Part shown: positions 12,817 to 53,959 of the stretch, in pieces
How the letters are laid out: each line of letters opens with the position of its first letter
Position numbering within the stretch: the stretch's first letter is position 1
Assembly: GCA_051942245.1 (NCBI GenBank)
Contig: JAVECL010000026.1
Location: 1 to 64,000, forward strand
Reading direction: 5' to 3'
Source: Trypethelium eluteriae
Taxonomy: Eukaryota
Length of the DNA: 64,000 nucleotides
The notes under the pieces: generated by a model
Database searches by the model: none
The model's input: the letters and a program-made list of their open reading frames with translations, nothing else
What the model was told of the DNA's origin: nothing
Position numbers and translations under genes: made by a program

Positions 12817-14310
12817 GAATAAAATACCCAATTATGATGAGTCTTCCATTACACCAACCATGCATGACTGCTCTTTCAGATGTAGCCTATCGCAGCCGTT
12901 GGGTTGTTCGGTCTGCCGTTCGAAGGTAACATTGAACCTGTAATTTTTGCTTTTCTGTTTAGCCTACAGATACAAATTGTCATGTGGTTGGCTGGAATGC
13001 ATTCTCCCCATCTCTCTTTATGGTACATTGCTAAAGCCCGTGGTGTATCGATCGACGCTGGACTTCAGGATCTTCCTTCCGCACCTATCTCATCAAGCCT
13101 CTCACGCATATTCAAACTTGCCCCAAGGCTTTTGACCTCTCGTTTTCTAGCTTCGCATAGTAATTATCGCGTTTGCGGACGGCTGGAACGTGGTAACCTA
13201 GGAAAGCAATGAGATATTTTTCTTGAAATAGGGCGGATGTGTCTCTCAAAATGGCGATAGCATTTAATCGGCCCTTTCGTTGGGAAGTGACCAAGAGGTT
13301 CATTCTACGTACCGTACCAGAAGAAGTAGGCAGAGGAGACACCGAGGCCTATGGCAGTCATTAGCTTCGACTGAATAGAATGCACTTTCTCGGAACATGC
13401 TATGATTTATGAGGATTGAACCTACCAAGGGCGACACTGAGGTCAAGGACAAGACCGCGTCGTAGCATCTGACGAAAATCGATTAGCGATGCCATTGACA
13501 CTTCCAAAGAAGCATATTCTGATCCTTACACCTGTGATAGGTTTCACAGCCATTTTTGCTGGGATGCGGAGGGCGAATTGAGTTTCGATTGTGTACGCTG
13601 TTACGAGCAAGTAGAAGAATTAACGTTGCTGTTGTAACGCTACTAATGGAGGTGACGGTGCTACGGGATGTTTCGCTCGCTTACTTAATCTGCAAGCACC
13701 AGCTCTATACTTGAACCTATCGGGTTACCGAATCACATACCCCATCGCGTGGTCTTCCCTACTTATTAACCGCTACATTTGGGCTGACAGCACCGCTCAC
13801 GAAGCCATAACCTTGGAGATGGCGCCGAGACTCTCATCGTTGGATTCGACCAAGACCAACCATGCGGCCAGACCTTCAGCAGAGTAGCTCACTTCAGTAC
13901 TTCGATCCCAATAACGTATCCGCGCTGTCGACAATAAAGAAATGGTTTCAATCCTTCATTGCCAGCTATCATTAGCTACCGCCAAAGGGCTGGAGACCAT
14001 AAGGGAACAAAGGATCCGATGACGTTTGGACATCTGTGGAACAATGTAACAAAGACCGGACAGAGAGACTAAGGATAATGGTATTCGGAATAATCTGTCA
14101 TTCTTTAAATATATGGTCCCTCGTAGTTCCGCAGCTCCATAGAAAATACAGACAAAAAAAATATCATCGTCCCTGTCCCTCGTGGTTTGCAGGCAAATCA
14201 CCTCTTTACACAAGAGTCGCCATCATCTCTCTAATTTATCTGCAAATCATTTTCAGGGTTAATTCATATTTTCGTCAAATATATCCAATTTCCTCATTAC
14301 ATCTAACAGC

Positions 14311-15696
14311 ATGGCACGTGTCAGGAATAATCGCAATCAAAACCATCGAAACAACCAAAACCACCCGAACAATCAGCATGGCCAGAATCGTCAAAGTAAC
14401 AATAATAACCGCAATGAGAACAACAATTTCAGCAACAACCGCAGAAATAGCAACTACAGCAACAACAATTCTGGCAACAACAACCAAAATGACTCTCGAA
14501 ACGGGCGTAATGGCCGACACGACAACGGATTCCAGGGAACATGCAATAATTGTGGAAGACTAGGCCACAGAGCAGTCGATTGCAATAGCCGGGGTAAGAG
14601 TAACAATAGGCATGATGTTGCCGGCCACAGGATCATCAGTAACGGGGGCGTATTCAAAACTAACCTCCGAGATTTACGGGATAGGGCCCCAAGGTCATCG
14701 AAGTATTGTTTTTACTGCAAAAAGGACGGCCATGTTACTGAACGCTGCAAGTATCCCCCTAAAATATGCTTGAACTGCCTCAAGAAAGGTCACTTGCAAG
14801 AGCAATGCAATGACAAGAATCCGAATTTACCCATCGAAACTGACGCAAGGGACTTTTGTGTCTGGTGCAACTCAGCCTGGCACAGCGGAAATGCCTGCCT
14901 CGAGAAGCAAATCGCAGCGCAACAGTCCGGCCGACGATCTTCCGAATCCTCAATGTCCGACGCTCACAGCGGCCACACGCACGAGGTCATCCAATCCCAA
15001 CCCAGCAGCTCCTTCTCCGCCGCCGCTGCAGCCCCCTCCCACCCAAGCAACCCTCTCTCCAGCATCACGGCGCAAGCCTGGGCGCCGCCCGTCTTCGGCG
15101 CCAACAAAGCGCAGCACGAGCTCCAGCGCCACACCTGCGAGTCCTGCGCCTCCAGCACGCACCGCACGACGGAATGCGCCGCCATCCAGCCCTGCACCTC
15201 CTGCTACTCGCCCTTCCACTCCCGTGCCGCCTGCCTCGACGTTCAGGCCGCCCAGCCCGTCCTCAAACCCGCCGTCACCCTCTGGCAGCAGCGGCCCGAG
15301 CATGCCGCCGACCCCCGCTACTGCGTCTACTGCAACGCCACCGGCCACACCACCGAGGCCTGCGGCAACGAGCTGGCGCAGGCGGCGCATTTGGGCTCGG
15401 CGCTGCGCTGTGGCCAGTGTGGGAAGCGAGGGCATACGGATGAGAGCTGCTTGAATCCGACGGCGCAGTGGGGTGGGCCGCCGACGTTGCAGAATCTGAG
15501 GGAGCAGGATTGGAGTGTGGCGTGGATTAACGGGTGGAGACCGGCGTGTAGTAAGTGTGAGTTTGCGATGGATGTGTATGATGTGTGGAATGGAGATGCG
15601 GATGTCGCGATGGGGGGATGTGTGTCTGGGAGGCTGTTTATCCCGGCGCATGTCTGCAAGGAGAGCGTGGTTTGGTGGGTTAAGATGGAATACTAG
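14311..15696 (+). CDS. Intronless multi-CCHC zinc-knuckle nucleic-acid-binding protein with an Asn/Gln/Arg-rich N-terminus
   Basis: 461-aa ORF with eight CX2CX4HX4C motifs (e.g. CNNCGRLGHRAVDC, CFYCKKDGHVTERC, CLNCLKKGHLQEQC, CGQCGKRGHTDESC). The first ~75 aa are dominated by N, Q and R. Confidence 0.85.
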   Translation: MARVRNNRNQNHRNNQNHPNNQHGQNRQSNNNNRNENNNFSNNRRNSNYSNNNSGNNNQNDSRNGRNGRHDNGFQGTCNNCGRLGHRAVDCNSRGKSNNRHDVAGHRIISNGGVFKTNLRDLRDRAPRSSKYCFYCKKDGHVTERCKYPPKICLNCLKKGHLQEQCNDKNPNLPIETDARDFCVWCNSAWHSGNACLEKQIAAQQSGRRSSESSMSDAHSGHTHEVIQSQPSSSFSAAAAAPSHPSNPLSSITAQAWAPPVFGANKAQHELQRHTCESCASSTHRTTECAAIQPCTSCYSPFHSRAACLDVQAAQPVLKPAVTLWQQRPEHAADPRYCVYCNATGHTTEACGNELAQAAHLGSALRCGQCGKRGHTDESCLNPTAQWGGPPTLQNLREQDWSVAWINGWRPACSKCEFAMDVYDVWNGDADVAMGGCVSGRLFIPAHVCKESVVWWVKMEY

Positions 15697-16094
15697 GTAA
15701 GTCTTAAGCAGAGACGCATGCCGGACGTGGGTCTGTTTCTTTTCTTTTGCCCTCTTTGTTTGGTATTTGTTTGACCGCATTTATTTAAATACTATTTGAA
15801 TGGGGTTATTGACCGAAAAAAGGATTGAAAATCATCTTCCCTAAAAATTCAATATTATCGATGGCTTTTTCATTTCAACTTGCGTTTCGTGAAATAACCT
15901 ACAGGTACATAATTTTTATTGAATCGCTAATCCAGTAGAATCTCCAAACCAACGCACGCGTACATTGTCAACAGCTTCGGGCAGGAGAGCCCCTCCATGA
16001 AGTATCATAATCAGAGCTCGCTCGCCTTCACGGACGACTAATAAACTTAATACACAACAACCGACGACATGATGTCTGCAAGTGCTTGGATTCT

Positions 16095-17933
16095 TCACAG
16101 CTTGGACTGGCGCTGCAGATATTGCCTAAGCCCCATTGCCACTGCGAATTAGATAAGTTAGCCTCTCATCTTAAATTAGCGCCCCCATAGACTAGTAGTC
16201 TCAACTCACAGATGGCAACAAGGATATACCTCTTGACCGCACCACTTGTGCTTCCAGTTCCCAACGTCAGTAACCAGCTCAGTAGTGAATACCTCACGCG
16301 ACCTTCGCGATCAAAGTTCGGCTTGAGATCGTTCATGCGTTTGAACTGTTTGATCTTACCGGCGTACGGCGGATAACGGATTTTCAGCAGACCCTCCATC
16401 CAGCCTGGAGTAGTGGTGTAAGAGCGACGGTGGGTGAAGGAGTCGAAAGACGCTTTGCCGCGATAGGCGCCGGAGCCGGAGGAACCAACACCACCAAAGG
16501 CCAGGGTTGGAATCGAGGCATGGAAGAAACCGCTATAATGAAGTCAACCATTTGCATTTTCTAGCTCGGTAGGAATGCGATTCACGGGCATACTCATTAA
16601 TGGAAGCACCACCAGAGCGGGTCTCGTTCAACACCTTCATCGCCTCTTGCTTTGTTCCGAAAGGATAGATACCCAAGGGTGTATCATGCACCTCGTTCGC
16701 CATCTTGATAGCTTCGTCCAGATCATTTACAGGGTAGATTGGAATTAAGGGTCCGAAGCTCTCATCTACCATGAGCGAGTCTGTTGGGTCATCGACTTGC
16801 ACTACGGTAGGCTCTAGGAATTTTTCCTTCTCGTCCATCGTCCCTCCAAGCAAAATCTTGCCACTGCTCTGATCTAGCATCTTCTTCAGACGTTGCCACT
16901 GACGTTCGTTTACAATGCGTCCGTAATCGGGGGAATTTTTCACACCCTGGGGAAAGAACTCTTGCTGTGCCTTTTTCAGTTCCTCAAGAAAAGCCGGGAG
17001 AATCTCTCGATCCACTAGGATATAGTTCTGCGAGACGCAGACCTGTCCAGCGTTGAGTAGCTTCGCCCATAACAACCGCCTTGCCGCAAGTCTTGGATCT
17101 GCGTGCTTGGTGATAATGGCTGGATTCCTACCACCGAGCTCCAGGGTGACAGGCGTCAATGTCTCTGCAGCTTTCTTCGCAATGATAGTGCCTACGCCAG
17201 CGCTACCAGTGTAAAAGATTTTATCCCATTTCTGGTCTAGTAGAGCAGTTGATTCGGGAATACCGCCCTGGACGACCGTGTACGCAGACGGGTCGAGATA
17301 GTCCTTAATTATCATCTCCATGACCGCGGCAGCTGCAGGAGCATTTTCACTAGGCTTGAGCACAGCTGTGCAGCCTGCAGCGATGGCACCAATGAACGGA
17401 CCAAGAGATAGTTGGATGGGGAAATTGTAGGCGCTTATCATTCAATGAGTGTCATTGTCAAAAGAATCACCGAGAGTCGCAACAGGGCAAGTTCTTACTT
17501 ACCCAATGATCAGAACAGTACCCATAGGATCTTTCTTGATCTTGGGGGCAACAGGTCGATTCGTCAGCGAAATGTCCGGTGCGCTTTCGTCTTTGACCCA
17601 TTTCGGAAGGTTTTTGCACATGAAAATGATGTCGTTTTCGCACCAGCCGATCTCGGTCAGATAGGTTTCGAAGTGCGACTTGCCAAGGTCACGCTTGCAA
17701 GCTTCGACGACGGCGGCTTCATTGTCTTTAAGACTGTGCAAATGTCTTTAGAGGTGTGACTACTTTTATCAGGAATGGGGAAAACTAGCTTACCCCCAGT
17801 AGAGTTTGCGAAGCTGCGTAAGTCGGTACTCTACTGATCGTGTTTTGTGAGAATGAAATGTTGAACGGATACGGTTCACTACTTCTGGAATGTCCTCGGC
17901 TGGGGTGAACTGGAGGTCTGGGACCTTTTCCAT
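16095..17933 (-). CDS. ALDH3-type fatty/apocarotenoid aldehyde dehydrogenase (Hfd1/YLO-1/CarD-like) with C-terminal membrane anchor
   Basis: AYNFP, KPSE, FYTGS, TLELGG, NAGQVCV (catalytic Cys) and ESFGP motifs; four introns; ends AMGLRQYLQRQSKL*. Confidence 0.92.
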
Positions 17934-18621: not shown

Positions 18622-20412
18622 TTAAGCAGGCCCGGTCGTGTCTGCGCCTGGCTTGAGATTCTTCCACGGCGCGAAGGCCGAGACTATGACACAGATGCCA
18701 GCCAGCGCAATAACAAGTGCGTACGTCACCTTCAGACCATGCATATACGCAATCAGCACCGGACCTATCTGATCGGCGGAAAAGACCTGGCGAAGCTGCG
18801 TTGCTCCGGTGGAGACGACAAGAGATGGGTTGATGTCAGGTGCTATATCTCTAATCTTGACAATGATTTGGTTGGTGAATGCAGATTCTGCGCATGTAAG
18901 GAATATCGCTCCACCGAGTGTCTGGAAGAACAAAGCCATGGATGAGGCCACAGAGACATCAGCCATCTCGACCGAACCTTGTGCAACCGCAATCGGTGTA
19001 TTGGTGCCAAGTCCAATGCCAATTCCGGATAACACCTGGTATCCGATCCATTTATTCGATCCAGAGCCAATGTCGAGGGTATAGAGAAGGCCAGCGCCGA
19101 CAATGCTGAACACGGCTCCAAGAATAAGGAATGGCACGTAGTGGCCTGTTGCTGTAATGAGACCGCCTGAGACAACCGCAAAGATACTGGTCCCAAGAAC
19201 AAGCGGAAGATTGCGAACCCCCGATTGAGATGCAGAGACGTTGTCCACAGATTGGAAATATATCGGAAGATAATACAAGAGAGTGAAGAAGCCGCCACAA
19301 AAGAAAAAAGTGTACGTGAAGGCAATCGCAAGCTGCCGTCTTTTGAGAAGTCGTGGGAGAAGCAGAGCGTATTCGCCAGAGACGTATTCGTTCACTGCAA
19401 AAGCAATCGCGATAAGAACGAAGCCAATAATAGTGCCAATCACATCTGCGGAGCTCCATGCCTTTGTGACGCCGCCCCACTGGAGGGCAAGGGCCAAGCA
19501 AACCACAGCCGCCATTATGAGGAATGTTCCACTCGGATCCATATGGAGGAACTTCTCCCTACCAGTCGCCGGAGCTGGTTTCGCAGAAGGAGGTGGTTTG
19601 AAGAGGAGAAGAACGATAGCACCTGCAAGGCCTCCAATTGGAAGATTAATATAGAAACACCAACGCCAGGAAACGTTCTGCGTGAAGGCTCCACCAATGA
19701 GTGGCCCAATGACTGCCGCAATTCCGTAAGTTCCTCCCAGAATGCCTATGAAAGCTGGTCGCCTCGAAGGAGGAGCCACGAAAGCCATCAGAGTGTAAGT
19801 TCCAGATGCAATTCCTGCACCACCTACGCCAGCAACCGCACGACCACCAATCAGTGTCTTTGACGATTTTGCAACGGCGCAAATCAGGGAACCAAGCTCG
19901 AAGATAAATATCATAACTAGGAAGACCCATTTGACTGGAAAATACTTATACGCTTTGCCAGCAGTGCTCTGAAAGCTAAAACGAATCTGTGAGCAGGAGA
20001 TCGAGTTCGATGGGTATCTTTGGATTTACCTTGCTAAAGTAAGGAAAAATGCGGTGCCATACCATCCAACATCGTCGAGCGAGTGGAATTCGTCGGTGAT
20101 CTGAGGAATTGCAGTCCCAATGATGGTCATGTCAAGGGAGACTAGAAAGATTGACAAAGCCAGAGCAACAAGGATTATGGTAAGTCTGCCAGCTTTAGGG
20201 TATTCTTCTTCTTCAGGAGCATTTGATGTATCTGGGAATTTCTCGTTCTCGCCAATGGCATGGCCATCGGCAGCAAGAGCATCGACATCTTCATCAGCCT
20301 GCTTTGTCGAAGGGTAATCGCTTAGACCTTTTTCTCGAGAGGTCTCGGTCGTGCCTGGGATCCCATTGAACTGCTGATTCACAGTAGAATCTTCAGAGCT
20401 GTCTGATGCCAT
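18622..20412 (-). CDS. 14-TM MFS drug/toxin efflux pump (DHA2, GliA/AflT-like)
   Basis: [58 protein letters not shown] and YYLPIYFQ motifs; one intron at about 19975-20029. Confidence 0.95.
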
Positions 20413-20622
20413 GTTCCGAAGTACTGTGAGAAGTCTCGGGGCGAAGAGCGGGCAACACTCAACGAATCTTTGAATCGAACCTCCTGCGTCTGGACCAACC
20501 AAATGGGGCAAGAGCTAAGTTTTGGCTGTGAATTCGGTGTGGGATCCAGCCAAGAAAGATCAAGCCAAAGGATGTGAGGACGGGAACTATATTGGCCAGG
20601 GAGAGATCGCTCGCCATGGACG

Positions 20623-20698
20623 TCCGGATGAAGTTCGCACGAATCCGGACGGAGCTGGACGAACCCGGATGAAATCGGAGAGAGTAGCCCGGACAGAG
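20623..20698. promoter_or_regulatory. Array of four CCGGA(C/T)RRAR motifs upstream of the MFS gene (candidate Zn2Cys6 sites)
   Basis: ccggatgaag, ccggacggag, ccggatgaaa and ccggacagag start at about 20624, 20645, 20665 and 20689, roughly 210-290 bp upstream of the ATG. Confidence 0.5.
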
Positions 20699-21596
20699 TT
20701 CCCATTGCCATGAGGCTTACAGCTAAATCATTCAGCGAGTTCCCCACATTTATTTAATAGGCGACCACTGTTGCTAGGGTTCCTTCCGTTAAGGCGTACA
20801 ACTAATTCAGGACCTTAGTCCCCGTTCACCACACTTGAAGCATGACCGTCACAGTATCGTCCCAAATTCCGGTCTCATAAGATTCTCCGCAGGCTCATGC
20901 AGAGTTTGTGGCGTGACTTCATGCTACTTTCCTTCGGACATTGCTGTCGGACAGTTCTCTTCCCCCATTCTCTCACCATTCTCCGAAAACGGCGGACGAA
21001 AACTCTACTCAAGATATCATTGGCCTCCGACGAGTTAGTAATTCAGCCAAATCGAAGGTCGATAAAGTGCTGCACACTGCCGAACATCACCTCGAAGGGT
21101 AGGTATCGGTGTATGTAGGCATTGCTTTGACGAGCCCAAATTTTTTATTGAATTTCCAAGATCCTAGCCAGTGGAGAGCATGTGAAAGACAAAATAGCCG
21201 GCATAGAACTCACAACAATGTACACAGAGTCTTGTTACGTCCCTTTGCTACTTCGCTTGGGTGATTTCCACGGACGGTTTCTCTGACCGTTTCCCCTGAA
21301 GGGATTTATAGATGAAACTTATTTCAGGAACTGGCCTGAAAGACAATGACGGACACTAAAGATCGCTTCTGACACGCAGTCCGACCTCCAGGCAATAAGG
21401 AATGAGTGCAAAAATTCTAGCTTTGCATAGACGTAACCAGAAATTTATGCTTAAGAAGAAGGTTGAAGGACTGAGGTTTCTCGACAAGTGAAGAGTCTGC
21501 TGGTCCCAATATAGTATCTCTAAAAGTGTTTATGGACACAACCATAGAAGGATATTGAATCTACAAGCAGCATGTACCGCCCTTGTCTATGGCTAA

Positions 21597-23170
21597 TCAC
21601 GACGCAATCGCTGCTGCTGCCCTTTGAGCCGGTAGGGTGATAGTACGAGACTTCCTCACTTGGTTATTACATCCATTCCAGTATCTCTCTGCTCGGTAAC
21701 TGTAGTCATTCACTTTTGGTTAGCCCTGATGTGAACACCAATTGCAGGCACTAAGGTAGGAAATGTTGTTCCACATATCTATGGGACGGAGAAACCTACC
21801 TCCAATTTAGGTTCGCAAGTGCCACATTCTGTACAGAAGTGATATACGTCTGCACCTGACTATCAATCTCCTCTCCCCATGTTGGGAGCTCTGTAAGTGT
21901 CTGATACCAGTCCCGGTAACGGCCCTTCAACAGTTCTCCAGCACAGTCAAAGGAAGATTGAAGGCTATATCCTTGGAGATGGTACAATGAGACGATATTG
22001 TGGCTTTCTCCGAGGGCCTGAGCAGATGGAGCCATTAATAAGGCTATTGTTTAGTGAGAAAGACAGTATCATACCTTTTCTTTGGCATAAGACACGATGT
22101 CATTTTGTCTAAGCTGTCAGTAGAGATTTGCAAGCATACTTTTAGAGGGGCCTTACATTAAGACCATATCTGTAGCAATTGTTTCAATTTTCTGGATGCT
22201 TGGATGCTTGATTACTTCGTCTGGTAGTTCGAGGCCGTACGCATATCTGGTTGTGGTCAGAAACATTGGCAGCTAAGTCAGGGAGATATAGCTACTCAAT
22301 CAATGCATATATAGGGGTTGTTGCGATGGAGTCTCGTCGCAAAGCCACAAGCCCTTCGATGGTTGACGTCAAGACAGCTGTTGACTGCAGATTCACTTGT
22401 TGCATGACTGCCTCGACATATGAGGTCATTGAGGCAGCAAATCGATTTTGTACGCCTGTGCTCGTCGTCAATTTGGAAAAATTTGCCAGGGATGAAGGTT
22501 TCACCTTTGGACGAGGTCTAAAGTTTCAATTAGCATTAAACAGAGATACAAATGAGCTATTACGGACCTGAGATAATCGTAACCAGATTGATTTGTACGC
22601 AATCAAAAGAGGATGCTCTGGCTCAAAATTTTCATTCCTCATAATGGAGACTAGCCCATCTATGAGCTTCCGTGCCTCTTCTGGGTTCTTTTGTAAATGG
22701 CCATTGTCAAAGGCTATCCTAGAAAGTCAGTTCAATGCCCATATGTTTGATCTCGCGGAGCCCGAGAGACTCGCCATCATCAAAAGGAAAAACCTAAATA
22801 TTGATGTCAGAGTAAGCTAGATCAAAGTCGATGACCGCCGTTGTCTCACCCAATTTCCCCAATCACATAGCGTACGAAAGGTCTCAGCACTTGCATCTGG
22901 CATTACCACGGCGCAGAAATAGGAAAAGTCTGTTCTGTGTATGATGCGAGAGACTCGACTATCGAAATCCCCATGCCTACTCAAATCAGGTCATCTTTCA
23001 GCAGGAAAGAGTGTAGACACGTACTTCAATAGCCATGCTTCAGACTCCTGCCGAACTTTTTCATAATGAGGATTCACGCGGGGAGGCTGAGCCAGAAAGA
23101 AAAGAAACATTTCAGGGAGAGTAACTTGCACCATCCCATTCTCTTTCAAAGTATGCTCTAGAGAGCCCAT
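21597..23170 (-). CDS. Class I terpene cyclase, probably a sesquiterpene synthase, 10 exons
   Basis: Spliced reading gives PRVNPHY, TDFSYFC, CDWGNW-VFPFDDAFDNG (DDxxD), RRDS, QNDIVSYAKE (NSE/DTE) and NLNWSYRAERY (WxxxxxRY). Includes 19-nt and 13-nt micro-exons. The ORF track captures only fragments. Confidence 0.92.
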
Positions 23171-25644
23171 GGTGATATGATGTGCTTCTGTAACTATGAT
23201 TCTCTTAATCTGTATACAGTGCGAGGAAAAGCTTGGGTTGCTATCCTTGGGCAACGAAGGCAATTTTGTGCAAGTCTTATCAGTGCAGGACTGTGCTACA
23301 AAGTGTGAAACATTCTTTATTCCTTCAGCCACATGTAGATAAGAATTTAGCAAAGGTGGGAGTTGGACGTCTGACTCGGTTCGGAGCGCATACCATCGCA
23401 CCGGGATTTTCCAAAAGCGTTTCAATACGCGATTAAAGAGGGATCGTCAGATTTGTCTTGCTTACTTTTCAGTGACTCAGAAAAAAATTACACGAGTCAG
23501 CGATTCGATTTTCATGGAGTTTGGTTGGTGCAATACTAGGTCGACTGCATACGATGTACGGTGGCGCAAACTCTGCAAGAATTCTGCCTTGTATGCATAG
23601 CTTGATACTCTAGAGACGGCATGATAGCAATGAGCGCTAAAGCCTTAGCCCAAATGCAACGAAAGACACACGTTCAAGTGAGCCGAACTGAACATCGGAA
23701 AAGCAATTTGATGGTCATGCAATCCGCCGGAATCCGTCATTGCCAGATTGGATTCCAGATGGAGGGAAGAACTGAGCACCGAAAGCTATCGTCAATCCCG
23801 TCACTGGGTTGCCGACTGATGGTTGCAAAACACTTTTGCAGATCTTTCTCCATTTTCCGGTCTGGTGCAGAGGATTGATAATGCTCCCAAGCGGCGAAGG
23901 AAGGAAGTAATTGCACCATTCATGGATCAACGTGCATCCGGTCTTGGTCTCGGCCCTGCTAGAAGACGCTGAAGGAAAAGAAAGAAAAGAGACCCCCACG
24001 ATGAACATCTGTGTCAGACGGTGAGATTTTACACGCATTACCCGGAGTAGAATATGACAATTCTGAGAATTTCCGCACTGAAAACGTGGAGAGCTGAAGT
24101 CTTGCTGTTGCCTACCTGTAAGCTCAAGGACCTCAAAAGTATAGAGAAAGGTATTTTGACAAAGAGGTAGATGATAGGGAACTTTACGGTAGTGGATACC
24201 TTTAGGCATCCAAGTCAGCATTGCCCAGGTGTTAGGCTTCACACGGTTCCTTCGGGATTCAATGAGGGGATTTCACGTGGAAACGGTGAGCGCGAATGAA
24301 ACAAATGATGTACGCCGGTGGTGGCTGCCTGTGTTGATCGCGACTTCTACACGGGCTTCGTGAGCTCTCGGAATCGGCGACCGATATAGTGGAAAAGTAC
24401 ATGTAGCAACATGTCCCAAGTAGGAGTTCTGGTGAAGTGTGGGATACTTGTTTTGATGTCAATTAGGGGCGCCGTGGCGCCTCCACCGGCATACGCCTCT
24501 ACGGGTCGGGTAGAGTACCCGATTTTGTCTTGACTATAAGCTCCACAAATATCGTCAAGTCGCGTTCTATTCCGCAAACGAAACATGAAGTTTGAACGAG
24601 GTAAGACCTTTGTGGAGATCGACGTTATGGATGCTGGGGTGAAGGTGTTAAGGTAAAGTCGGATATTTATCTCCGATCCGTACCGTAAAGCCAGCTAGTG
24701 CACGGAGTGCTTCCTCCAACGACACCATAATCTTGGTCATAAGATAGGGTCCACCTCCCAGCGACGCCAAGAGAGCGGTAATATTTCATTACTGTTACAA
24801 TACGATACTCGAACAGAGCGTGCGGAAGCCTCGTCACCCCCGCATAGAATCCTGCCAACGGTGCCACGCGGCGAGTTGCGCATGTGGAGTCCACGCGATG
24901 GCAAAGACCCCCAAGTCCCTGCATCCACGGATGAGACAGTCCCACTTCGAGGCTTAACTAGCGATCTAGCCTATGTCAGCTTGACTATCTGCAATAAGTC
25001 ACCGTTCAGCACTTGACTATGCCGGAAAGCATGCAACGTTGCGGACGTTGCCGTTATCTACCATTCCATTGCGAAGGCTCCGTGAACTAAAGCCGCGCTT
25101 GAAAGTTACCCAATCATCACGAATTGCTAACTGATCTGCTCTCACCTATACAGTCATGCGGTGAGATCGTCGCATTTCTACAAGTATTTCTTTTTTGTCA
25201 ACCCTGTCTCTCCGGTGGCTACCCAAGCCACTCATAGCAGAAACTGTAAATTGCTCAAGATCAAGATTGTCAATCTTCGCACGGGGTGAGATTTAATGTT
25301 GGAGGTTTGAACACTCTATATGCTACTCTTCGAGTTCTTTTACTATTTTTCTCCCCTGGGAATTGTTACATGAAGCCCTACTCTGTAAGTATGTAAGGAT
25401 CAATCTCTTGGTGGTCTATGCAGATTACAGTGCTAAGAGATGTTCTTGCAAGGGCCCTTGCCGCTAATTAGTAGAGAAGATAGGTTCAACATATAAGTTA
25501 ATGGCGGAACATACTTTCGCCTACAGAAAGGCCGCCATTTCAGAGGGACTAAAAAGGGCCATAGGCGTTGTTTACCTTGCCTATTCGTCCTTGTTATTGT
25601 ACAAGAACATAATTGCCGATCAATTCCTCCGACAGAGTTTCAGA

Positions 25645-27387
25645 ATGTGGCTCCTCTTTCTTGGAATCTGTGCAACTTTGTTTCTCGCGAGAAGTTTTTA
25701 CCGGCTTTATCTCCATCCCCTCCGCCGCATCCCTGGGCCCAAGTTGGCCGCCATTACACACGGCTATGAGTTTTACCACGATGCAATTCGCCATGGGATG
25801 TATATCTGGGAAATCGAGAAGATGCACCAGAAATACGGTAAGCAGCTCAATGAAAATGAACGGAATATCTTTGACAAGTATCTACGGGTCCGGTCGTGCG
25901 CATCAATCCTCGCGAAGTCCATATCAAGGATCCCTATTACTATGATGAAATCTATGCCTCGGCTTCCAGAAAACGAGAAAAAGACTCCAAGTTTGTCGGT
26001 GTTTTCGGCTTTCCATATTCAATGATTGCAACTGTTGGACACGACCTGCATCGATTTCGTCGGGCACTGCTCAATAACTTTTTTTCTAAAAAGTCGGTGC
26101 TGGAACTGTCTGGCCTCATGCACGAGAAAGAGTCGATACTCATGCGACGCTTCGAAAAGGCGCATCGAGACAACGCTGTGCTTCACTTGGACGATGCTTT
26201 TGCTGCACTGACTGCAGATCTGATCGCGCAGTATTCTTGGGGTGTAAGCTCCGGGTTCTTGGACGATGAGAATTTCAAGAACGACATTAGACAAGCTCTC
26301 AATGAGATTTCTGCCTTCGTTCACGTTAATCGATTCTTCCCCATACTCTCGACAATTTTAAGGGCAGTGCCACGGTGGCTTTTAGCTAGACTTCGACCAG
26401 GGGCTACAGCTGTGCTTGATATGCAGGATGTAGTGGCTCAGCAATCTACTACTGAGAAGAAAGCTTCGTCGAGGAAGACGATCTTTGACGCCTTAAATGA
26501 TCCCAGCGTGCCACTAAAGGAGCGGTCACCTCGTCGACTTGAAGATGAAGGGTTGATCGTGGTCGTTGCAGGTACCGAAACTACAGCAAGGACACTGACT
26601 TTGGCGGCCTTTTATCTTTATCAGAACAAGCCTCTCTTACAGAAACTTCGTGAAGAGCTTCGGCCTACTATGCCCACTCCTACTACCGAGGCATCCTGGC
26701 CACAGCTGGAGCAGCTTCCTTATCTTGTAAGTTTCCAACTCCTAAGATACACAGACTGCCAATTCTGACCAATTTTGTTTGGCTAGAATGGTGTTGTAAA
26801 CGAGGCCATTCGACTTTCTTATGGGCCCATATTTCGATCCACACGGGTTGCACCCACAGAAGCTCTGAAATATAAGAACATTGTAATCCCACCAGGAGTA
26901 CGCTGCCTACCCAATTTCATCAACTCAAGATCATAAGTTTGCTGACATATCCACTTCGCGCAGACACCTGTGAGCATGTCCAGCTATTTCGTCCTTTCAG
27001 ATCCAGAAGTATTTCCTGATCCAGGAAGCTTCAAGCCTGAGCGCTGGATTCGAGCTGCTGAACAGGGTCAAAACCTTCAGAAGTTCCTCGTCTCCTTCAG
27101 CAGGGGAAGTCGGATCTGTCTTGGTATGAAGTAAGTCCATTTCCCTCCTATGTTCTGATTGAATTCTACGGCACTATCTCCAATGCGCTATGGGCTGATT
27201 ACCCTTATACAGTTTGGCCTACGCGGAATTGTACATGACGATAGCCTCCTTTGTCCGCCGTTTTGACATGGAACTTTATGAAACTACATTTGACAACATC
27301 CGCGTTGATCGTGAATTGGGGATCGGACAGCCGAAAGAAGGGGATTTCGCAGTACGAGCCAAAGTCACCAAAGTCATTGAGGATTGA
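25645..27387 (+). CDS. Cytochrome P450 no. 1 (CYP58/Tri4-like clan), 5 exons; intron-1 acceptor is non-canonical
   Basis: TM anchor, HPLRRIPGPKLAA, VRINPREVHIKDP, AGTETT (I-helix), EAIR (ExxR), KPERW and FSRGSRICLG (heme Cys). Confidence 0.92.
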
Positions 27388-28109
27388 GTTCACCATCCCT
27401 TGATGCAAGGCGAAAGTATACTGGGTGTTCAAGGCGGAGAAAGCAATGAAGGACTTGTCCATCGACAACCACAGAGCATTTACCCAGAATATTATCAGGA
27501 TCGCGAGATAGATCAGGGCATATTTTAAAAAGTCACTCTGGGAGATTATTCATTTTCCCTGTCTGCAATGTGAATTGTTCAATCATTGGTGTGGCCTCGA
27601 GGTTACGATCAATTATTCGAGCCGGGATCACTGTGATCGAAACCACGAGCTTGTTAAATACCAATAGTTCTTCATCATGAGCATAAAATTTCTTTAACAG
27701 TCCCGCAGATCTAAACCCCAATGCAGCACACGTGAGCGCAAGGCCGGGCTACGTAATGATAGCTGATGCAGATTTGCTTGCTCCGAGATGTTCAGTCATT
27801 CCCATGATGTGTTATGAGCGATGTAAGGGATTTCTACAAGATTGGCTCCAAGCCGAAGCTCAATGCTGTCGGAAATCGGCGAATGCGATGCGATTACTCA
27901 GTACCTTCATTTCACTCAAGCTCACCGAAAATTTCAAGGAACCTGGAAGGCCAACTTTGAGTCATCTTTTGTCAGGACTCTGGGCGAGAATATGGATTTC
28001 TAAGAGCGAACGAAGATGAAAGATGGAAGCTAGATATCAAACCTGAGGCTAAAATCTTAGCCATGCATTTGAGGAATATGCACGGTCCTTTCGCAATCTC
28101 TCTCCCAAA

Positions 28110-28620
28110 CCGGACGTCATCAGCGGCACAGGACAGAGACTTGCCTCCGTCATTCGCCCGAGCCGGCACGCCTAGATCCCACCATCCTCCGTCTCCTCAG
28201 GGTCCGGACGACTTCTTCCCGGACAGACTCCTTCTCTCAGGCCTTCGCTCTATCAATCTACCCCAATTGGCATGCGCACGCGCCCTTCACCGACTCTTGG
28301 GTTGACTTGGTGGCATAGTCTGACCCCGGACTACACTTGTTCGTCAGATCATGACTAAATCAGTTTTTCATGCATCTTGCAGCAACCTGGAGACGGCCTT
28401 CAAGCCGGTAGGGTGAAGAATGAAGATAAGCTGCGCGGCTCTCAAGGCCTAATTGCCGTCCTGCATGCACATCAGCATCCAGCTCTACGTTAATGATTGA
28501 CCAGTCAAGATATTACGAGATACGAGATACGAGAAATCGTAGCCGGTGAGTGAACTTTCATGTATTGTAAGTTTCGAATCAATACGCTGGCTGCCAGTAA
28601 TAATTCTGAAGCCGGACTGT
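28110..28620. promoter_or_regulatory. Five CCGGAC motifs upstream of P450 no. 2
   Basis: CCGGAC at about 28110, 28204, 28219, 28326 and 28612. The 10-mer CCCGGACAGA is identical to one in the MFS promoter. Confidence 0.45.
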
Positions 28621-28759
28621 CGATCATGGCTTTGCACGGCCTGGCGAGCAATATAGTTAGACAATTCCACCTCCTGATTTCTACACTTTACTGTGAATAC
28701 TGTTGTGCTGCGCTCTCCTAGTACTCAATCTCGGTTTCAGCACCTACTGGCCTCGAATC

Positions 28760-30506
28760 ATGGTTCTATACTACGTGTTGGCATTCCTCCTGTATCGCCT
28801 TGGAAAGATAGTGTACAATCTCTATTTCCATCCACTGCACAAGTTCCCAGGACCTAAACTTACAGCTGCTACGCATGCATATGAGTTCTACTATTCCATT
28901 GTGAAGGATGGACAATTTATATGGGAGATCGAAAAAATGCACAAACAATATGGTATAGCAGAAGGACCCAGAAACCCAAACTCTATTCTGTGTGGCTGTG
29001 CTAATATCGTTAAGGTCCTATCGTGCGCATCAATCCCCGTGAACTCCACATCAGCGATCCTTCTTTCTACAATGAGATATATGCCGGTAATCCTAAGAAG
29101 GTTGATGGTGACTTGCCTTTCACCCGATCCACAGGTGTATCCAAATCCATGTTTGCTGCCAATGAACATAATTTGCATCAGTTCCGTCGAAACATTCTCG
29201 CAAATTTCTTCTCTAAACGGTCGATCACAAATATCCAGCCTCTCATTCAGGACAAAATCGAACGGCTTATAAAGAAGCTAGAGGAAGCTCGTAATGATGG
29301 CAGCGTGGTCAACCTGACCACACTATCGGCTGCTTTCACCGCAGATACAATTTCCCATTATACATATGGCGTTTCCTTGGGATGTCTGGACGGCCAATCA
29401 GAGAACATCCTGACAGATGCAACACAAGCTGTGCTTTCATTTGGACATTGGCTCCGCTTCATACCTCTAAGGTTCTCAAATATGAAGAAACTGCATCCTC
29501 GGTTTGTTGAGAGCACCTTCCCGAAAGCGGCGACAGTTCTCAAGACGCACAGAAGAATCAGTGCTCTTGCATTAGAAGTGCTCAATGCGAAAGAACCCAA
29601 ATCTTCCAAGGAGACCATGTTCACGGCACTCGCAGACCCTGAGCTACCTGCCGAAGAGAGGACGCTTGCTCGTCTAGAGGATGAAGGATTTGTTGTCCTT
29701 GCAGCTGGGACGGAGACCACGGCATATTCTCTGAGTGTGACATTGTACCACTTATTGGCCAATCCGGACATACAGTCACAACTATACGATGAAGTCAAGA
29801 ATGTGATGCCTGAGCCATCAAGTCAACCTCCATTGGCAGTACTGGAGAACCTACCTCTACTCGTAAGTGTCTCCTTAACTGTGCTCGAGCTTACACGGTC
29901 AACCACTTGCTGATTACATACAGAGGGGAGTCGTCAACGAAGGTCTTCGGCTATCCATGGGTACCTTCACTCGCCATCCTCGCGTTGCGCCTGATCGTGT
30001 TCTACAATACAAGGATTGGACCATTCCAGTCGGCGTAAGTGGAACAGAGCTTTATCCCAAGAGTTGTTCTAATGCCGGAACAGACTCCGTGCAGTACCGC
30101 CACTTACTTCGTCCATACAAATCCGGAAATATTCCCCAATCCCACGACCTTTGATCCTTGGCGTTGGATTCGTGCAGCTGAGCAAGGGCAACACCTCGAG
30201 AGCCAGCTGGCGCTGTTCTCCAAGGGGTCCAGGGCATGCCTTGGGATTAAGTAAGTCTTAGTAACTTCTGTTCCTTATACACATGTTACTATTCCTTTGA
30301 ACCACCCCGACTAATTGTCCTCACACTGGTACAGCATGGCCTATGCGGAGTTATATATGACAATCGCAGGGTTGATTCGGCGAGTCAAGATGGATCTATA
30401 CGAGACCACTGTCGATTGTGTCACACCGTTTCGAGACCATCTCATCGTCGTTCCAAAGGATACAACAGGTGTAAGGGCAATCGTTACAGCAATCAATACT
30501 TCGTAA
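28760..30506 (+). CDS. Cytochrome P450 no. 2 (CYP58/Tri4-like clan), 5 exons
   Basis: [40 protein letters not shown] and [10 protein letters not shown]. Four introns at the same protein positions as in P450 no. 1. Confidence 0.94.
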
Positions 30507-31899: not shown

Positions 31900-33117
31900 T
31901 TAAGATTTGGCATGTATCGTAATTGACAGCGGTGATCTTGCCCTCTCTGTCGGCTTCTTACCCGGGCTTAGCCCATCAGAGCCTATTTCTTCCACAACAG
32001 CTTCCTCAAAGTCCCCGTCTGCGCGCCGCAGATACCTAAAGCCACGTCTATGTGCTTGAGTGACAAACTTGCGTATTGCGACCACAGTCAAGAGAACACA
32101 GAGAATAAACAGAAAAGGATGGTGATCCGCAGTCCACCAGAAAGAGTTCCAGCCATGGCTGAACGAACCGATTTTACCAAGGTAGTCCCACTCCCAATCC
32201 CGAAATGAGACATGATGAAGGCCGTTAGAAGAATGTAACAAAGATTCCCTAATATTGCGGCAAGAATTTTCCATATCTCTCGGACGAGCATCGCAGCGCT
32301 GTATTGATTGAATGTCTTTGATCTGCAGTCGAGGTCGGAATTGTTCTTGTTCGAGGACAAGTCGAACAATACGTTGGTCGCGAGCATCAAGTAGGAAATC
32401 GTGGCGGGTATTCTCGTGCCAGTAAGTTATACCAACGATGTCAAAGGTTAGATGCGTGCGCCGCGACCCTCGGGCGGATTGCAGCGTTTCGTCAAACGAC
32501 AGTACATAAGTACCGAACCTCGTGCCCATCTTCCACGAGTCGTCCAGCATCTGGTAATCGGCAATCTTTTCCAGAAGCTCCCTGGATGCGTTGGCTTCGA
32601 CCTGGTAGGCTCGGAGCCCTGATGCCTGGGATTGTAGCGGAAAGACCCGTTTGCCATTAAGCAATAGTGAAAGTTGATCAGAGGTTAAAGTAAAGTTCAA
32701 AAGCTACAATAAACTCGTCAATATGCAGAGAAAAACAAAAACGCCTAGGCGGGATAGCTTCCGAATCATCGGAGTGGCTTGAATGAAAGCTATGTCTTGG
32801 GGTTGGAGCCTTACAAGAGAATTGGGTCGACCTGGCTCCTCGTACTGATCCCAAGTACCTACGGTGGAGCCGCGGATGTCAAAGGGACAGCCAAGGCAAT
32901 CAAGTTTTACGATGTAACTCATACTACGCCTTAGCTCAGTGACTGAATTGGCGATCTCCGGGATCTCGAAGCCATGCGCCAGGAGTTCACTTTGTGTTAG
33001 GTCATATTGAAAAGCCCATGATATGTCTCCCGGGTCATCGTGAACGCTGTGATGACCCGAAACGGTGACAGCCAAACTGATGGTCAAGAAAAGAAGCCAT
33101 CTACACGAAAGCAGCAT
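31900..33117 (-). CDS. Uncharacterised fungal type I membrane protein (signal peptide, lumenal CxxC, C-terminal TM)
   Basis: Signal MLLSCRWLLFLTISLAVTVSG; KLDCLGCPF; intron at about 32704-32814 joins to LLNFTL...LLLNG; TM FLFILCVLLTVVAI followed by basic residues. Confidence 0.75.
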
Positions 33118-35706
33118 GAAGATCTAAGAGATATGTGTACGATAGTGAGAAGCAAGCATTGTCAAATGTGTAGTTTGAAGGTTGAGTTGGAGACGGAAAA
33201 GCGGTTTCACCCATGTTTCTTGTTGCTGAGTCGATCATCCAATCAGACTCCGACTTTAGTGTGCTCTACTCCGTATTTGAGACGCGTCCACAACGCGTCC
33301 AGCAACTCCATTATTCACAATAGTCTGACAATTGAGTCGCAGCGATCTCGATAGAAGGCTAGGCAGTTTTGAATAGGTCCCGTCTGAGTATTGGGCACGA
33401 TCATTCGGGTTCGGTAATATTTCTGCAGTGCCGCGAATGATTTTCACGGGATCGATCATTTTAGTATGTCTAACTACTCTATCCTCTGCAGCAATGTAAT
33501 GGAGCAATCCTTATTTGACTTGGCTTACGCAAGCCGATATGATAAGTTTCTGTTCGATCAGGGCCTTATGACACGTCAGTGCCTCATAGCGAGTCACCAC
33601 ATCAACAGGCATATTCCTGTCCAGCCAAGATAGCTGGATAAGTTCGCCAACAAAGGGAGACACCGTGCACAAGCCATCTACCTTCGCATACGAAAAGGTG
33701 CCGGCAGATCTGGGTGTGCTATCATATGAAGCGGGACTAGTCGTCAATGAGACGACATCGGACTCGGTGGAGATAGACATGCCACAGCGACCCTTCACGA
33801 TATTGGTCTACTAAACTTATCTCGCAATTTGCTGTGGAGTACTCCTTATGAATGGACAACAGGACCTATCTTACAGGACAGCATTGAGCATGAGGGCTGA
33901 CATCTCAAGCACTCGGAGCGCGTGGGAAAAGATTTACCATAACAAAGGGCGTTTCAGAAAATCAGACGAATTCGCTAGGGCCTTGCAATCTAATTACCAG
34001 GACGCTGAGTGAACAGCTGTCAGGACATAGCTTCCTACATTAGGAATCGATTGGTAACCTGCTGGGAATAGATGCATTCATAAACTATTGCCTGTCAACT
34101 ACCGAAGACTGGTAAAGTCCCCGCGTCCGTGAAGGAAGATCTGCATTTTGAAACCTTGCAGACACGCGAGACGAGAGATCGGGGTTGCAAGGGGAAAGGC
34201 ACCGCGCGGCGGCACCTTCGGTATCTCTTAGAATATAGTTTGATGACGATTCAAAGATTGTATATGCTTGATCAATATGCGCGGAATAGTGGACGATGCT
34301 GCAGCAATGATCGGCAGGGTGCAGAATGGTATTTCAACCTGGTGGATGGTCTTGGGGCGAGATGGTGTCATCTCGTGCCGCCAGGGATATGAAGAGGCTT
34401 TCGACCACGGCGAGGTGGCGACATGGGGTGATGGGGTTCGGGTTTGATCTTGTATTATAGCAACTCATGAAGGACTGTGTGAAATGAACGTTCAGATTCA
34501 CGGTGCGCTCTCACAAGGACTCCAGCATGCAAGCGCGGCAAAGTCGAGTTTTATCCAGAAGGATTGAGAGATAATGGATAATAGCTGGGGCTTCCCGACC
34601 TGTCCCAGTAGATACGAGATCAGCCGTACTTCAGCCTTAGCTCCCACTGCCCGGAAGGGACACGTGGGAAGGGAGTTTCCGGACCGCGTCACACCAGGTC
34701 GACCTTGCACAGTTGCTCGTTGAGGAGCACTGGGGGTGGGGGCCTGGATGATGCCTTTATGTGCGTCTGCTAGGTCTGTAGATCTTGCATTATTGCTGCT
34801 GCGTGCCGAGCCAGTACGCGCCCGGCCAATGCGTGTGGGTCTAGACGTTGTCCAACAGGAGTCAACTCTTGGAGCGGGTGATGACCTGCGTCGTCCTTCG
34901 TACGGCAAGAGGCTTCGGCTCGCATCCTTCACAAGGCGGTGGGGTAGCATCATGGATGCACATATGGGCTGAATTGGGGTGGACGGGGTGATGGGGAGCG
35001 CTGTTGTTCGTCTGCCCGCTGCTAATGTTATCACCCTTCCTGCCCATCTCCCTGGTCCCCTGCGCCGTCCCAAAAGTACTTGTTGTACTCCGTAACGCTC
35101 GTAGTGGCTGAGAGGCGGCCTTTGCTTTTTACAGCTACCAACTTACCTCTCTCAAATTACGGTCGCCTCTCCTCGTCACCCCCCTTTGGCCCCAGGTCTT
35201 CCACCTCTCCCTCTAGTGCTTCGACCAGTCGCCCACAGGCAACAGCGCACCAGTGCGACAATTCAGGCGCTGCCGTTCAACGGCCCGCGATCCTTTTCGG
35301 AACCCCTCCGACGTGATTGAAGCACCCAGCCTTTGACATCATCCAACACCGGTGCCTCCTCCACCATGCAAGGCATTTGAGCAGGAGCTTCAACATCCAA
35401 TAATATTGTTAACCCTTTTTATTGTCGTCAAAAAGCCCTATTGTGCTCCCCAAAGCTCAACTCTGGGTTATTGTCCGCCGTTTAGTGGACACAGCTGAAG
35501 GAAACACAGCCGCAGCACACCCTGGCAATCCCCCATCAGCCGGGACTTCGGTCAGCCTCTAAGTTCTTGTAAGTCGCCCGCAAAGACATGGGACCAGTGA
35601 TTTGATAATTTGCCCTATGCGACCGCTGATTCCTGCCATCCATAGCATTTGAAGCTTATCGTCCTTCTTCTGAAACACTACCATCTCAAAGTATCGCATT
35701 CCGTTG

Positions 35707-45691: not shown

Positions 45692-47592
45692 CTAGACTTC
45701 GGCTTCCTTAGCGACCGGGCCAAACTTCTTCACAATCCACACACAAAACTCGTCCCATCTCTGCCTCCAATACCCAAGCGCTTCCTCCTTCTGATCTTCA
45801 TTCAAGCAGCTGTGGACGATTGACCACTCCGCAAGTTGACGCCAGCCATGAAGGCTCATCGTCGTCGAGCCAACCATGACCTGATAGAATTCATACGAAA
45901 GGGTGGAACTGTTCGCAGACGACGATCTGTGATTAGTAACGTAAGTCTAAAAGTTCGCAAGGACAAAAGAAATGAAAGCCGTACCTAAAAAGTGCCGGAT
46001 TGTCGCTGTTTACGGTACACTCGAGGCCTTGCTGTAGCATTGCTGGATACGGATGCTGCTTGATGTTCCGGCAAAGGTTCAGAAGCTCGTTCGACACAGG
46101 GCAGAGCTCGATACAGATGCGTTTCTTCTTGAACTCTTCAACCAATTTGGGATGTTTCAAGATCGAATAGCCATGCCCAACGCGCTTTGAATTCAAAAGG
46201 ACAACATCGAAAAGATTGGAGTTCTCTGGGTCTTTGGAACCACCGGTATCGAGCAATGTCTCACCGGCATGAAACAGGAACGGGATCTTAATGCCCAGAG
46301 ATTCGCAGGTTTTTACAAAAGCCAACAACTCATCACGATAGTAGCTGATGGAGTTTGGACGGTCTTCGGCTCCAACAAGATCAAAGCCTGTTGGTCATTA
46401 AATGAGTACTGGACGCTAATCCTTTTCCACGAGACATCGCACTTACCGCAAATCAAATCCGGGTATGCGAGTTTCAGTCTGATGCAGTCAAGCATTTCCG
46501 TAGTCATTCGTGGCTTAGGAATAGAACGCGGTGTACAGTAGATGATCTTGAGCCCGAATGGGAATAATTCAAGCTGTCCCTTGGCCTCAAGGTCCTTTTT
46601 CTTTTTAGAAACTTCTTCCACGATGATATTCATTTGGTCTGAATGGCATAGTTGCTGAAGACCGTCATCGCTCGGAATTGTCTTATCCAGTAGCATCGGA
46701 CGTAATTCGGCATACATGATCTTGTCCTCAATCATGCTATCGATGGCGGCGCTGATATACCACCTGAAGACCGATTCATAGTTTAAGAGACCCTTGAAGC
46801 AGCGTGTGCCCTGGTTGAATCGTGCCCAAACACTAGCGCGGAGTTTAGCGACTGTCTTCTGTAGTACAATTGTCGTAATTACCCGTTTAGTGTTTGACTC
46901 TGTCTGTAGACGTCGTCTTCACTGAGAGCAGCTTTACTTCGCACCCAGTCTAAGGGATCACTTTTGAACTTCTGACGAAACTCAACACAGAAGTCTTTGA
47001 ATTTCATCCATGGATTGCTGTTCGTGTCCCCGTGGTCTGAGTTGTAATTCAGTGCAAAGACATTGGAGCTTTTCGTTCCCACTGGCAGGACGTTGAAGAC
47101 GACTTCTGTTTCATCCAAGTCATCTTTTCCCAGTAGAGGTCTGATGCTGCGAATGAACATGGTGTCCATGTCTTTGGCCTGTTGAAGCAGGATGTTTGGG
47201 TGCAGCTCCGAGTTGAAGTGGATATGCAAGTGGCCGCCTTTTGGCATCTCACGAGCAATTGAGTATATCTTGCTTTCTTGGATCCTGCTTCTATTTGTGA
47301 GAAATTGCCCCCCCATATCTCGGGTTTCGCTGTCTGGTATAGACTCTCCCGCTTGGTTGCCGAAGAGCGTTGGGTCGTCCCTTTCCATCTCTCTGATGGT
47401 TCGTACGATAGCAGCTGCCTCTCTCTCCACGTCCGAGGCCTCCAGTCTAGCTTTCGAGTCCCATGAAGAAGCTTGTTCGGCTTCGAGCAGTCTCAGTCTC
47501 TCCTCTGAATACTGATTCTGGCAGTCACTGTCCTTAAGAAACTGAGTGAATTTAGCTGCGAGATCAACATCAGAAGGTGTGAATGAAGCCAT
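45692..47592 (-). CDS. Adenosine deaminase of the ADGF/CECR1 (ADA2) subfamily, no signal peptide, 4 exons
   Basis: MPKGGHLHIH, YAELR, GFDLVGAED, FLFHAGET, RVGHG, IELCPVSN and VNSDNPALF motifs. Confidence 0.92.
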
Positions 47593-53600: not shown

Positions 53601-53959
53601 GAGCTGGCTATTGATTGGTCCAATTCGTTGGATGTTTGCTGAGCCAGTTGGTGACGTTGATAAATTTGTTTAGCTTCAGAATGGCTCATCTGCCTCTCAG
53701 CTGCATGGTCAAAATAAGCAGTCTTTCGCTGTTTGTCCCTACGAAGCAGCCCATCTTCTGTTTCTGGTGTTGCATCCTCTGATGTATTTGGTGTCATTGT
53801 TCCTATAACTGTGTCCTTTGCGCGACCATCTACCGTCCCTCGATTGTCTAACTCGTCTTTCTTTTGCGTAAATGTATTTCTCTCCTCACCTGCAAGTGGA
53901 GTATCCCAGCTACCTAACTCTTCCTCATAGTCGGAGTCAATATGTTGTACCCGAGACAT
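50656..53959 (-). CDS. AMD1: AMP deaminase
   Basis: [56 protein letters not shown] and [10 protein letters not shown] final intron near 51200-51250 joins to IERY...RPA*. Confidence 0.96.

Follow-up and report, generated by a model that had tools for sequence, protein, structure and literature searches.

What does a compact run of four genes in a lichen fungus make, and does it work as a complete pathway? The question is raised by a 64,000-nucleotide (nt) stretch of Trypethelium eluteriae DNA (positions 1 to 64,000 of contig JAVECL010000026.1, assembly GCA_051942245.1; hereafter the window), in which a major facilitator superfamily (MFS) transporter, a class I terpene cyclase and two tandem cytochromes P450 (P450a and P450b) lie side by side between positions 18622 and 30506. 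We consider it probable that these genes form a compact cluster for terpenoid biosynthesis in a lichen fungus of the Trypetheliaceae, the product being uncharacterised. T. eluteriae and Viridothelium virens both belong to the Trypetheliaceae, a lichen family of the Dothideomycetes; for T. virens, this placement is given in a published study (PMC10073361).

Gene models of the cyclase, the P450 pair and the transporter

The cyclase gene (21597-23170, minus strand) is assembled from ten exons (23170-23025, 22976-22850, 22793-22775, 22713-22568, 22517-22505, 22455-22296, 22246-22157, 22108-22075, 22017-21800 and 21699-21597), two of them as small as 19 and 13 nt. The resulting protein of 351 amino acids (aa) matches PF19086, is colinear with a full-length orthologue from Logan (P0005; 267 of 351 residues identical) and carries the class I motifs DDAFD, RRDS with the effector arginine, NDIVSYAKE as NSE/DTE motif, and WSYRAERY. 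The first of these, a match to DDxxD, appears only upon predicted splicing of a 61-nt GC-AG intron that splits it (22714-22774, minus strand; donor GCGAGT). A GT-AG alternative would place three extra residues inside the motif, which is uninterrupted in P0005 and in the Eurotiales relatives P0228 and P0009. The Usnea florida cyclase model reads DDGEAAFD, exactly as the GT-AG alternative would, suggesting that the same GC donor is used in that species. Both NCBI models of the window cyclase (303 aa and 157 aa) lack DDAFD. The NCBI models labelled T. eluteriae represent the window's own letters (439/439 for P450b; intron read-through in P450a) and are not independent evidence.

The two P450 genes lie on the plus strand. 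P450a (25645-27387; exons 25645-25837, 25888-26726, 26787-26897, 26964-27130 and 27213-27387) encodes 494 aa if its first intron is spliced at the homologous position, and P450b (28760-30506; exons 28760-28952, 29015-29862, 29924-30034, 30084-30250 and 30335-30506) encodes 496 aa, all of its introns being GT-AG. Both proteins match PF00067 and contain the heme motif FSxGSRxCLG, ExxR and the I-helix motif AGTET; PWRW replaces PERW in P450b. They have 223 residues in common (over the 494 aa of P450a) and the same intron phases. Each is a single residue away from an NCBI V. virens model (1 of 494 in the case of P450a, model P0010). The automatic names among relatives at 38-52% identity include "trichodiene oxygenase" and "benzoate 4-monooxygenase"; matches in the PDB were distant P450s, and no CYP-named reference was returned. 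The Tri4-clan (CYP58) label given to the pair in the initial annotation is putative.

The first intron of P450a (25838-25887, plus strand) stands apart. Its 3′ end reads CTACGG instead of YAG, whereas the other 17 of the 18 introns in the cluster all finish in AG. In the V. virens model splicing takes place at the homologous position and, given the one-residue difference between the two proteins, the acceptor change must be recent or an assembly error: the intron denotes either a recent loss-of-function allele or a wrong base in the assembly. To judge from the letters, P450a may be mis-spliced in this genome.

The transporter gene (18622-20412, minus strand; exons 20412-20030 and 19975-18622) encodes 578 aa with no internal stop. 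Matches to MFS_1 (E 1.9e-34) and TRI12 (E 5e-10), together with the length of the protein, suggest a drug:H+ antiporter-type transporter, putatively of the 14-helix DHA2 class, and a candidate exporter. Its nearest paralogues in the same genome are about 40-43% identical over long matches.

Thus, the MFS gene, the ten-exon cyclase and the two tandem five-exon P450s all lie where the initial annotation had put them, with the cyclase transcribed divergently from the P450 pair and its motifs complete. A further statement made there holds as well: the internal spacers, said to be wider than most in the flanking DNA, measure 1184, 2474 and 1372 nt, the smallest exceeding seven of ten flanking spacers (the ends of the flanking genes are rough, being set from open reading frames, ORFs). 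The cluster had also been called regulator-less, and a regular-expression search of all six unspliced frames, covering the window and the next 29 kilobases (kb) of the contig, detected no Zn2Cys6 pattern, although an intron-split motif may escape such a search.

Relatives, conserved linkage and origin

Searches with P450a and P450b returned 333 and 346 proteins, respectively, past E 1e-40; the best 120 of each were used, 31 and 52 of which carry an organism name. Among these listed matches we count as Dothideomycetes only two for P450a and one for P450b, all from the window's lineage. Over the full length, P450a is 82.5% identical to its relative in Dirinaria (417 aa), 72-73% to those in Peltigera, 67-74% to those in Xylariales and Diplogelasinospora and 57% to that of A. 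terreus. The corresponding values for P450b are 83.6% for Heterodermia (384 aa), 69-76% for Sordariomycetes and 55% for P. olsonii. The accessions or locus tags of the two P450s are consecutive in all six genomes where both are known (V. virens, T. eluteriae of the window's lineage, Hypoxylon trugodes, Xylaria acuta, Diplogelasinospora grovesii and Poronia punctata), linkage being read from accessions and contig records, not from DNA. Six further pairs appear to share a contig. In Heterodermia, one half of the cyclase (Q9195_009138) and P450b (Q9195_009135) sit on a single contig of 29147 bases. Linkage is therefore conserved for the P450 pair and for the cyclase with P450b; the adjacency of the P450s and the Heterodermia linkage together argue that the cyclase-P450 core is a conserved module. 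To this extent the biosynthetic unit proposed in the initial annotation stands, as a cyclase/two-P450 module recognised by adjacency in other fungi; the P450a acceptor argues against a fully working pathway in this genome. A metagenome scan with the P450a alignment narrowed 269 pattern matches to nine loci, whose best segments are 28-61% identical; among the matches listed, tblastn at E 1e-4 gave neither a cyclase nor an MFS transporter for any of these loci.

The closest named relatives of the cluster genes are found in Lecanoromycete lichens, at 76-84% identity; for the cyclase, identity to lichen orthologues is 76-80%. A search with exon 9, which recovered nine proteins from 16 candidates, gave 100% identity to an NCBI protein of V. 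virens, 83% to U. florida, 80% to Heterodermia aff. obscurata, 77-83% to five others and 59% to Penicillium lividum. When 1.84 billion representatives were searched with a profile, 4144 matched at E 0.001. Once P0254, a model of the window cyclase itself, had been set aside from the best 150 of these 4144, the matches listed that came nearest to the spliced protein belonged to Aspergillus steynii (52%), A. tubingensis (49%), A. heterothallicus (47%) and Arachnomyces (46%); because representatives are clustered at 50%, closer relatives may be concealed. A quick tree of 54 rows places the window cyclase together with Usnea, Heterodermia and P0005 (SH-aLRT 95). It falls inside a group defined by WVFPFDD(A/M)FD, apart from WVFLFDDQFD sequences that resemble BcBOT2, the presilphiperfolan-8-beta-ol synthase of Botrytis cinerea (the tree contains no characterised enzymes). 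In the genome as a whole, PF19086 matches occur on seven contigs, and one locus besides the window's has a P450 alongside. At this second locus (L001, C78:12985-16590) a nearly intron-free cyclase neighbours a P450 encoded on the other strand, so that cyclase-P450 neighbourhoods are not unique in the genome.

The same relatives bear on the origin of the cluster. Quick P450 trees of 74 rows join the window to lichen rows rather than to Sordariomycetes, with support of 98 for P450a and 86 for P450b, as does a careful P450a tree of 23 named rows (support 93/95), in which the path from the window to Dirinaria measures 0.27. This topology presumably fits the species tree, too. Approximately unbiased (AU) tests on P450a rejected neither Lecanoromycete monophyly (four rows; p-AU 0.36) nor a group uniting the window and Sordariomycetes (p-AU 0.12); they did reject Lecanoromycetes plus Sordariomycetes to the exclusion of the window (p-AU 0.007). 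As the trees also fit vertical descent and the tests leave both groupings standing, horizontal transfer as an established fact was discarded. The case for it is made by short distances, a patchy distribution and the lack of other Dothideomycetes among the listed matches. The P450b proteins P0388 and P0159, from Poronia punctata (Xylariales) and Diplogelasinospora grovesii (Sordariales), are 89% identical, and P450a is 81% identical between the two, values that are high for two orders; the former hints at a mobile module, and transfer is possible. On these sequences, transfer between lichen classes is a conjecture that may be given roughly even odds. Composition was also considered as a sign of horizontal origin and set aside, the difference in GC content at third codon positions (0.45-0.49 in cluster genes, 0.49-0.74 in six flanking coding stretches) being too slight.

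A bolder scenario, which we regard as unlikely, would have a lichen-shared module move horizontally between Trypetheliales (Dothideomycetes) and Lecanoromycetes. A lichen-restricted cyclase subclade, recognisable by a common GC-AG intron within the catalytic motif, would have joined two P450s that in Xylariales work with another core enzyme, giving an undescribed sesquiterpenoid skeleton with a role in the lichen lifestyle. If true, a non-squalene terpene pathway would be common to lichen classes, contrary to the view that such pathways are taxon-specific.

Proposed pathway, alternative explanations and surroundings

The predicted model of P0005, 76% identical to the window cyclase, has a mean pLDDT of 72.6 and superposes on BcBOT2 with a TM of 0.77 (8H6Q; E 7e-16), indicating that the orthologue, and by extension probably the window protein, adopts the all-helical terpenoid synthase fold. 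The best solved sequence matches of P0005 are BcBOT2 (E 1.8e-59), guaia-6,10(14)-diene synthase (E 5e-55) and Copu9 (E 2.5e-45); an NCBI model of the window cyclase matches BcBOT2 at E 6e-40. The four best solved matches are all sesquiterpene synthases. Among the 51 window ORF translations (14 + 37) covered by a Pfam scan, from which short intron-split genes may escape, there is no second prenyltransferase-type match, a result favouring farnesyl diphosphate (FPP) over geranylgeranyl diphosphate (GGPP) as the substrate. An oxidised sesquiterpenoid is the likeliest product, C15 use being predicted from the sequence. Since the solved relatives are only about 30% identical (31% between BcBOT2 and P0005), the skeleton is not predictable. 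Clade-based product prediction is less accurate for ascomycete enzymes, according to PMC10210940.

In the pathway that we propose, the cyclase would bind Mg2+ through DDAFD and NDIVSYAKE and ionise FPP, as class I chemistry implies, and then close it 1,10 or 1,11, in the manner of its nearest solved relatives, giving a sesquiterpene in hydrocarbon or alcohol form. The two P450s, old paralogues presumably anchored in the endoplasmic reticulum, would oxidise this product in sequence, and the MFS pump probably exports the result. In this genome P450a is probably impaired by its acceptor variant, or else the assembly is wrong at that base, and the pathway may thus go no further than an intermediate that is partly oxidised. 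By analogy, the compound is likely to serve in chemical defence or competition on bark.

Regulation might be exerted from outside the cluster. The divergent promoter region between cyclase and P450a (23171-25644, 2474 nt) contains six CCGGA/TCCGG sites, and five each are present in the regions upstream of MFS (20413-21596) and of P450b (27388-28759), both of these being weak features picked after inspection. In total, 16 sites fall in the 5030 nt of the three spacers and 19 in the remaining non-coding DNA of the window (20924 nt), so that the spacers are about 3.5 times denser in sites (p 3.6e-4; 1 of 500 dinucleotide shuffles). As the pattern was first noticed by eye and its enrichment is lost on correction for 512 pentamers, the sites are a hint, and only that, of a zinc-cluster regulator working in trans; its gene would lie outside the cluster, and it may operate through sites that contain CGG. 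The MFS and P450b genes are both preceded by the sequence CCCGGACAGA. A fifth gene within 23171-25644 was considered on account of an extra accession, KAF2237959, in the V. virens numbering. It is probably spurious, as the T. eluteriae tags are consecutive and the four ORFs of the spacer have no Pfam match.

Several observations weigh against a conserved, fully functional cluster. Outside the window's lineage the three-gene core is approached only once, in Heterodermia, for which there is no named P450a match. The contig bearing the U. florida cyclase (257824 bases) is absent from the 120 + 120 P450 matches listed. In these same matches, Dirinaria, Peltigera, Pseudomassariella, Rosellinia, Apiospora and four Hypoxylon appear for P450a alone, and Heterodermia, X. 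curta, X. grammica, Diaporthe and Amphichorda for P450b alone. No Xylariales or Sordariomycete orthologue of the cyclase was seen among the nine proteins from 16 candidates in the exon search, itself a weak one. To these must be added the failure of the CCGGA enrichment to survive correction, the abundance of related pumps in the genome (85 matching stretches) and the non-canonical P450a acceptor. The last two lie at the root of two alternatives, each of which we judge possible though clearly less probable than an intact four-gene cluster. One is that the cluster is decaying or silent, P450a being knocked out and the output, if there is any, being limited to what the cyclase makes or to a compound oxidised once. 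Retention of the CTACGG-ended intron leads to a stop at codon 127, and the T. eluteriae model, made from the window's letters, indeed fails to splice there. Six AGs lie near the intron end: use of the closest downstream would delete ten residues (GPVVRINPRE), including an RINP core kept in nearly all relatives shown, and the closest upstream is just 4 nt from a branch-like site. However, this upstream AG would give an in-frame product with three additional residues, the V. virens gene with its near-identical protein is modelled as spliced, and the remaining features are those of intact genes, all four coding sequences being free of stops and frameshifts and 17 of 18 introns having a terminal AG. 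The other alternative restricts the unit to the cyclase and the P450s, leaving the MFS gene as an unrelated neighbour and an aldehyde dehydrogenase (ALDH) gene and a gene at 31.9 kb as housekeeping functions. The many related pumps speak for it, as does the resemblance of the 31.9-kb protein to a broad DUF7728/GINM1-like membrane family; the transporter, on the other hand, directly adjoins the cyclase, has a TRI12-like Pfam match and is preceded by five CCGGA sites, in keeping with the other cluster promoters.

Two further alternatives concern the compound itself. That the cyclase makes a monoterpene or a diterpene seems very improbable. The sequence does not fix the substrate, and mono- and sesquiterpene cyclases are generally indistinguishable, as stated in PMC8403587; moreover, several helix positions before the aspartate motif differ between P0005 and BcBOT2 (V for W, GN for NH). 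Nonetheless, sesquiterpene synthases make up the four best solved matches, and no GGPP synthase match is found among the window ORFs scanned. The second possibility, somewhat less remote yet still doubtful, is a lichen version of a known Xylariales/Sordariales pathway, leading to the caryophyllene-derived punctaporonins of Poronia punctata or to mycobiont guaianes. P. punctata has the tandem P450 pair and yields punctaporonins (PMC13721174), and one of the two nearest solved cyclases, BcBOT2 and guaia-6,10(14)-diene synthase, is of a type that accords with the guaianes obtained from cultured Diorygma lichen mycobionts (PMC12113121). This amounts to co-occurrence only; the P450s are 67% and 69% identical to those of Poronia, and the window cyclase, of the WVFPFDD(A/M)FD subclade and about 31% identical to BcBOT2, is too distant for its product to be transferred.

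The genes around the cluster are of housekeeping types: serine carboxypeptidase, ISWI, adaptor mu chain, a zinc-knuckle protein, ALDH, G-alpha, COX24, AMP deaminase and PMT. The ALDH gene (about 16000-17933, minus strand) lies 0.7 kb from the MFS gene and presumably encodes a fatty-aldehyde type enzyme. The 31.9-kb gene (31900-33123, minus strand), whose secreted or membrane product is DUF7728/GINM1-N-like (score 0.91; DUF7728 is annotated on 11% of family members), was rejected as a cluster member because it resembles a broad Ascomycota membrane-protein family. Further out, a single-ORF protein (14263-15696, plus strand) combines an Asn/Arg-rich N-terminus with eight CCHC zinc-knuckle patterns. 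A GC-rich open frame of 214 codons upstream of the G-alpha gene (34498-35142, minus strand) has no Pfam match and is probably non-coding. Two deaminase-family genes are found within 9 kb on the minus strand, an adenosine-deaminase-like stretch (45936-46394) and AMP deaminase (51251-54025).

Comparison with known systems

The architecture is ordinary and in its logic resembles the compact cyclase-P450-pump clusters of fungi; clusters of this type are common, and a specialist would find nothing unexpected here. The botrydial cluster of B. cinerea consists of a cyclase and several P450s along with an acetyltransferase and a Zn2Cys6 regulator. Its cyclase, BcBOT2 (PDB 8H6Q/8H6U), is the best solved match to the orthologue P0005 by both sequence and fold; nevertheless, at 31% identity to the P0005 model and with the motif of another subclade, it is no high-identity orthologue, and neither an acetyltransferase nor a Zn2Cys6 regulator was detected in the 51 window ORF translations (Pfam) or by regular expression. 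The aspterric acid cluster (astA-D) is similarly compact, with one cyclase and two P450s, and includes a dihydroxyacid dehydratase (DHAD) as self-resistance gene. AstA, which we take to be of the trichodiene-synthase type, contrasts with the PF19086-type cyclase of the window. In the heptelidic acid cluster (hep/vir) a cyclase and P450s are accompanied by an MFS transporter, an aldehyde dehydrogenase and a glyceraldehyde-3-phosphate dehydrogenase (GAPDH) self-resistance gene; the ALDH next to the window MFS is a point of likeness. For aspterric and heptelidic acid the comparison is one of gene content, and the 51 window ORFs scanned contain no DHAD and no GAPDH match. The statement in the initial annotation that the gene set matches none of these three clusters is thus borne out for DHAD, GAPDH and acetyltransferase among the ORFs scanned.

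The second-best solved match, guaia-6,10(14)-diene synthase (Fusarium STC5 type, PDB 9WF7; E 5e-55), is likewise distant and bears the FLFDDQFD motif of the other subclade. The brasilane (bra) cluster (Hypoxylaceae; Trichoderma TaTC6), a compact cluster in Xylariales, combines a BraA/TaTC6-type cyclase and P450 with an N-acetylglucosamine transferase (PMC8403587); TaTC6, however, is 20-21% identical to the P0005 model, and the window cluster has no glycosyltransferase match. No account of the cluster was found in the open literature, the search not extending to MIBiG or subscription journals, and the literature searched makes no mention of 12 accessions of orthologous genes. The word "sesquiterpene" has no occurrence in the accessible text of a gas chromatography-mass spectrometry study of T. 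virens (PMC10073361), which is uninformative. As MIBiG and subscription journals lay beyond the search, the uncharacterised status of the cluster is probable rather than established.

For lichens in general, a 2024 survey (PMC11457338) reports that 0 of 724 terpene clusters grouped with a MIBiG cluster. According to a 2025 review (PMC11923402), only polyketide synthases had been expressed heterologously among the main lichen biosynthetic classes, lichen terpene synthases being uncharacterised, and terpene clusters are mostly rare and taxon-specific. With a corrected cyclase model to hand, and with Usnea, Heterodermia and Dirinaria all having close orthologues, the cluster would lend itself well to tying a terpene cyclase from a lichen to the compound it makes. 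Its value resides in the lichen context, with close relatives in two lichen classes, and is tempered by the possible splice defect in P450a. Solving the product would also show what an orphan P450 pair found across Xylariales, Diaporthales and Sordariales does. Also among the closest systems is this uncharacterised tandem pair of Xylariales and Sordariales, together with the lichen orthologues of Heterodermia, Dirinaria, Peltigera and Usnea: identities range from 67 to 83% for P450a and from 69 to 84% for P450b, and the two genes are adjacent in four Sordariomycete genomes.

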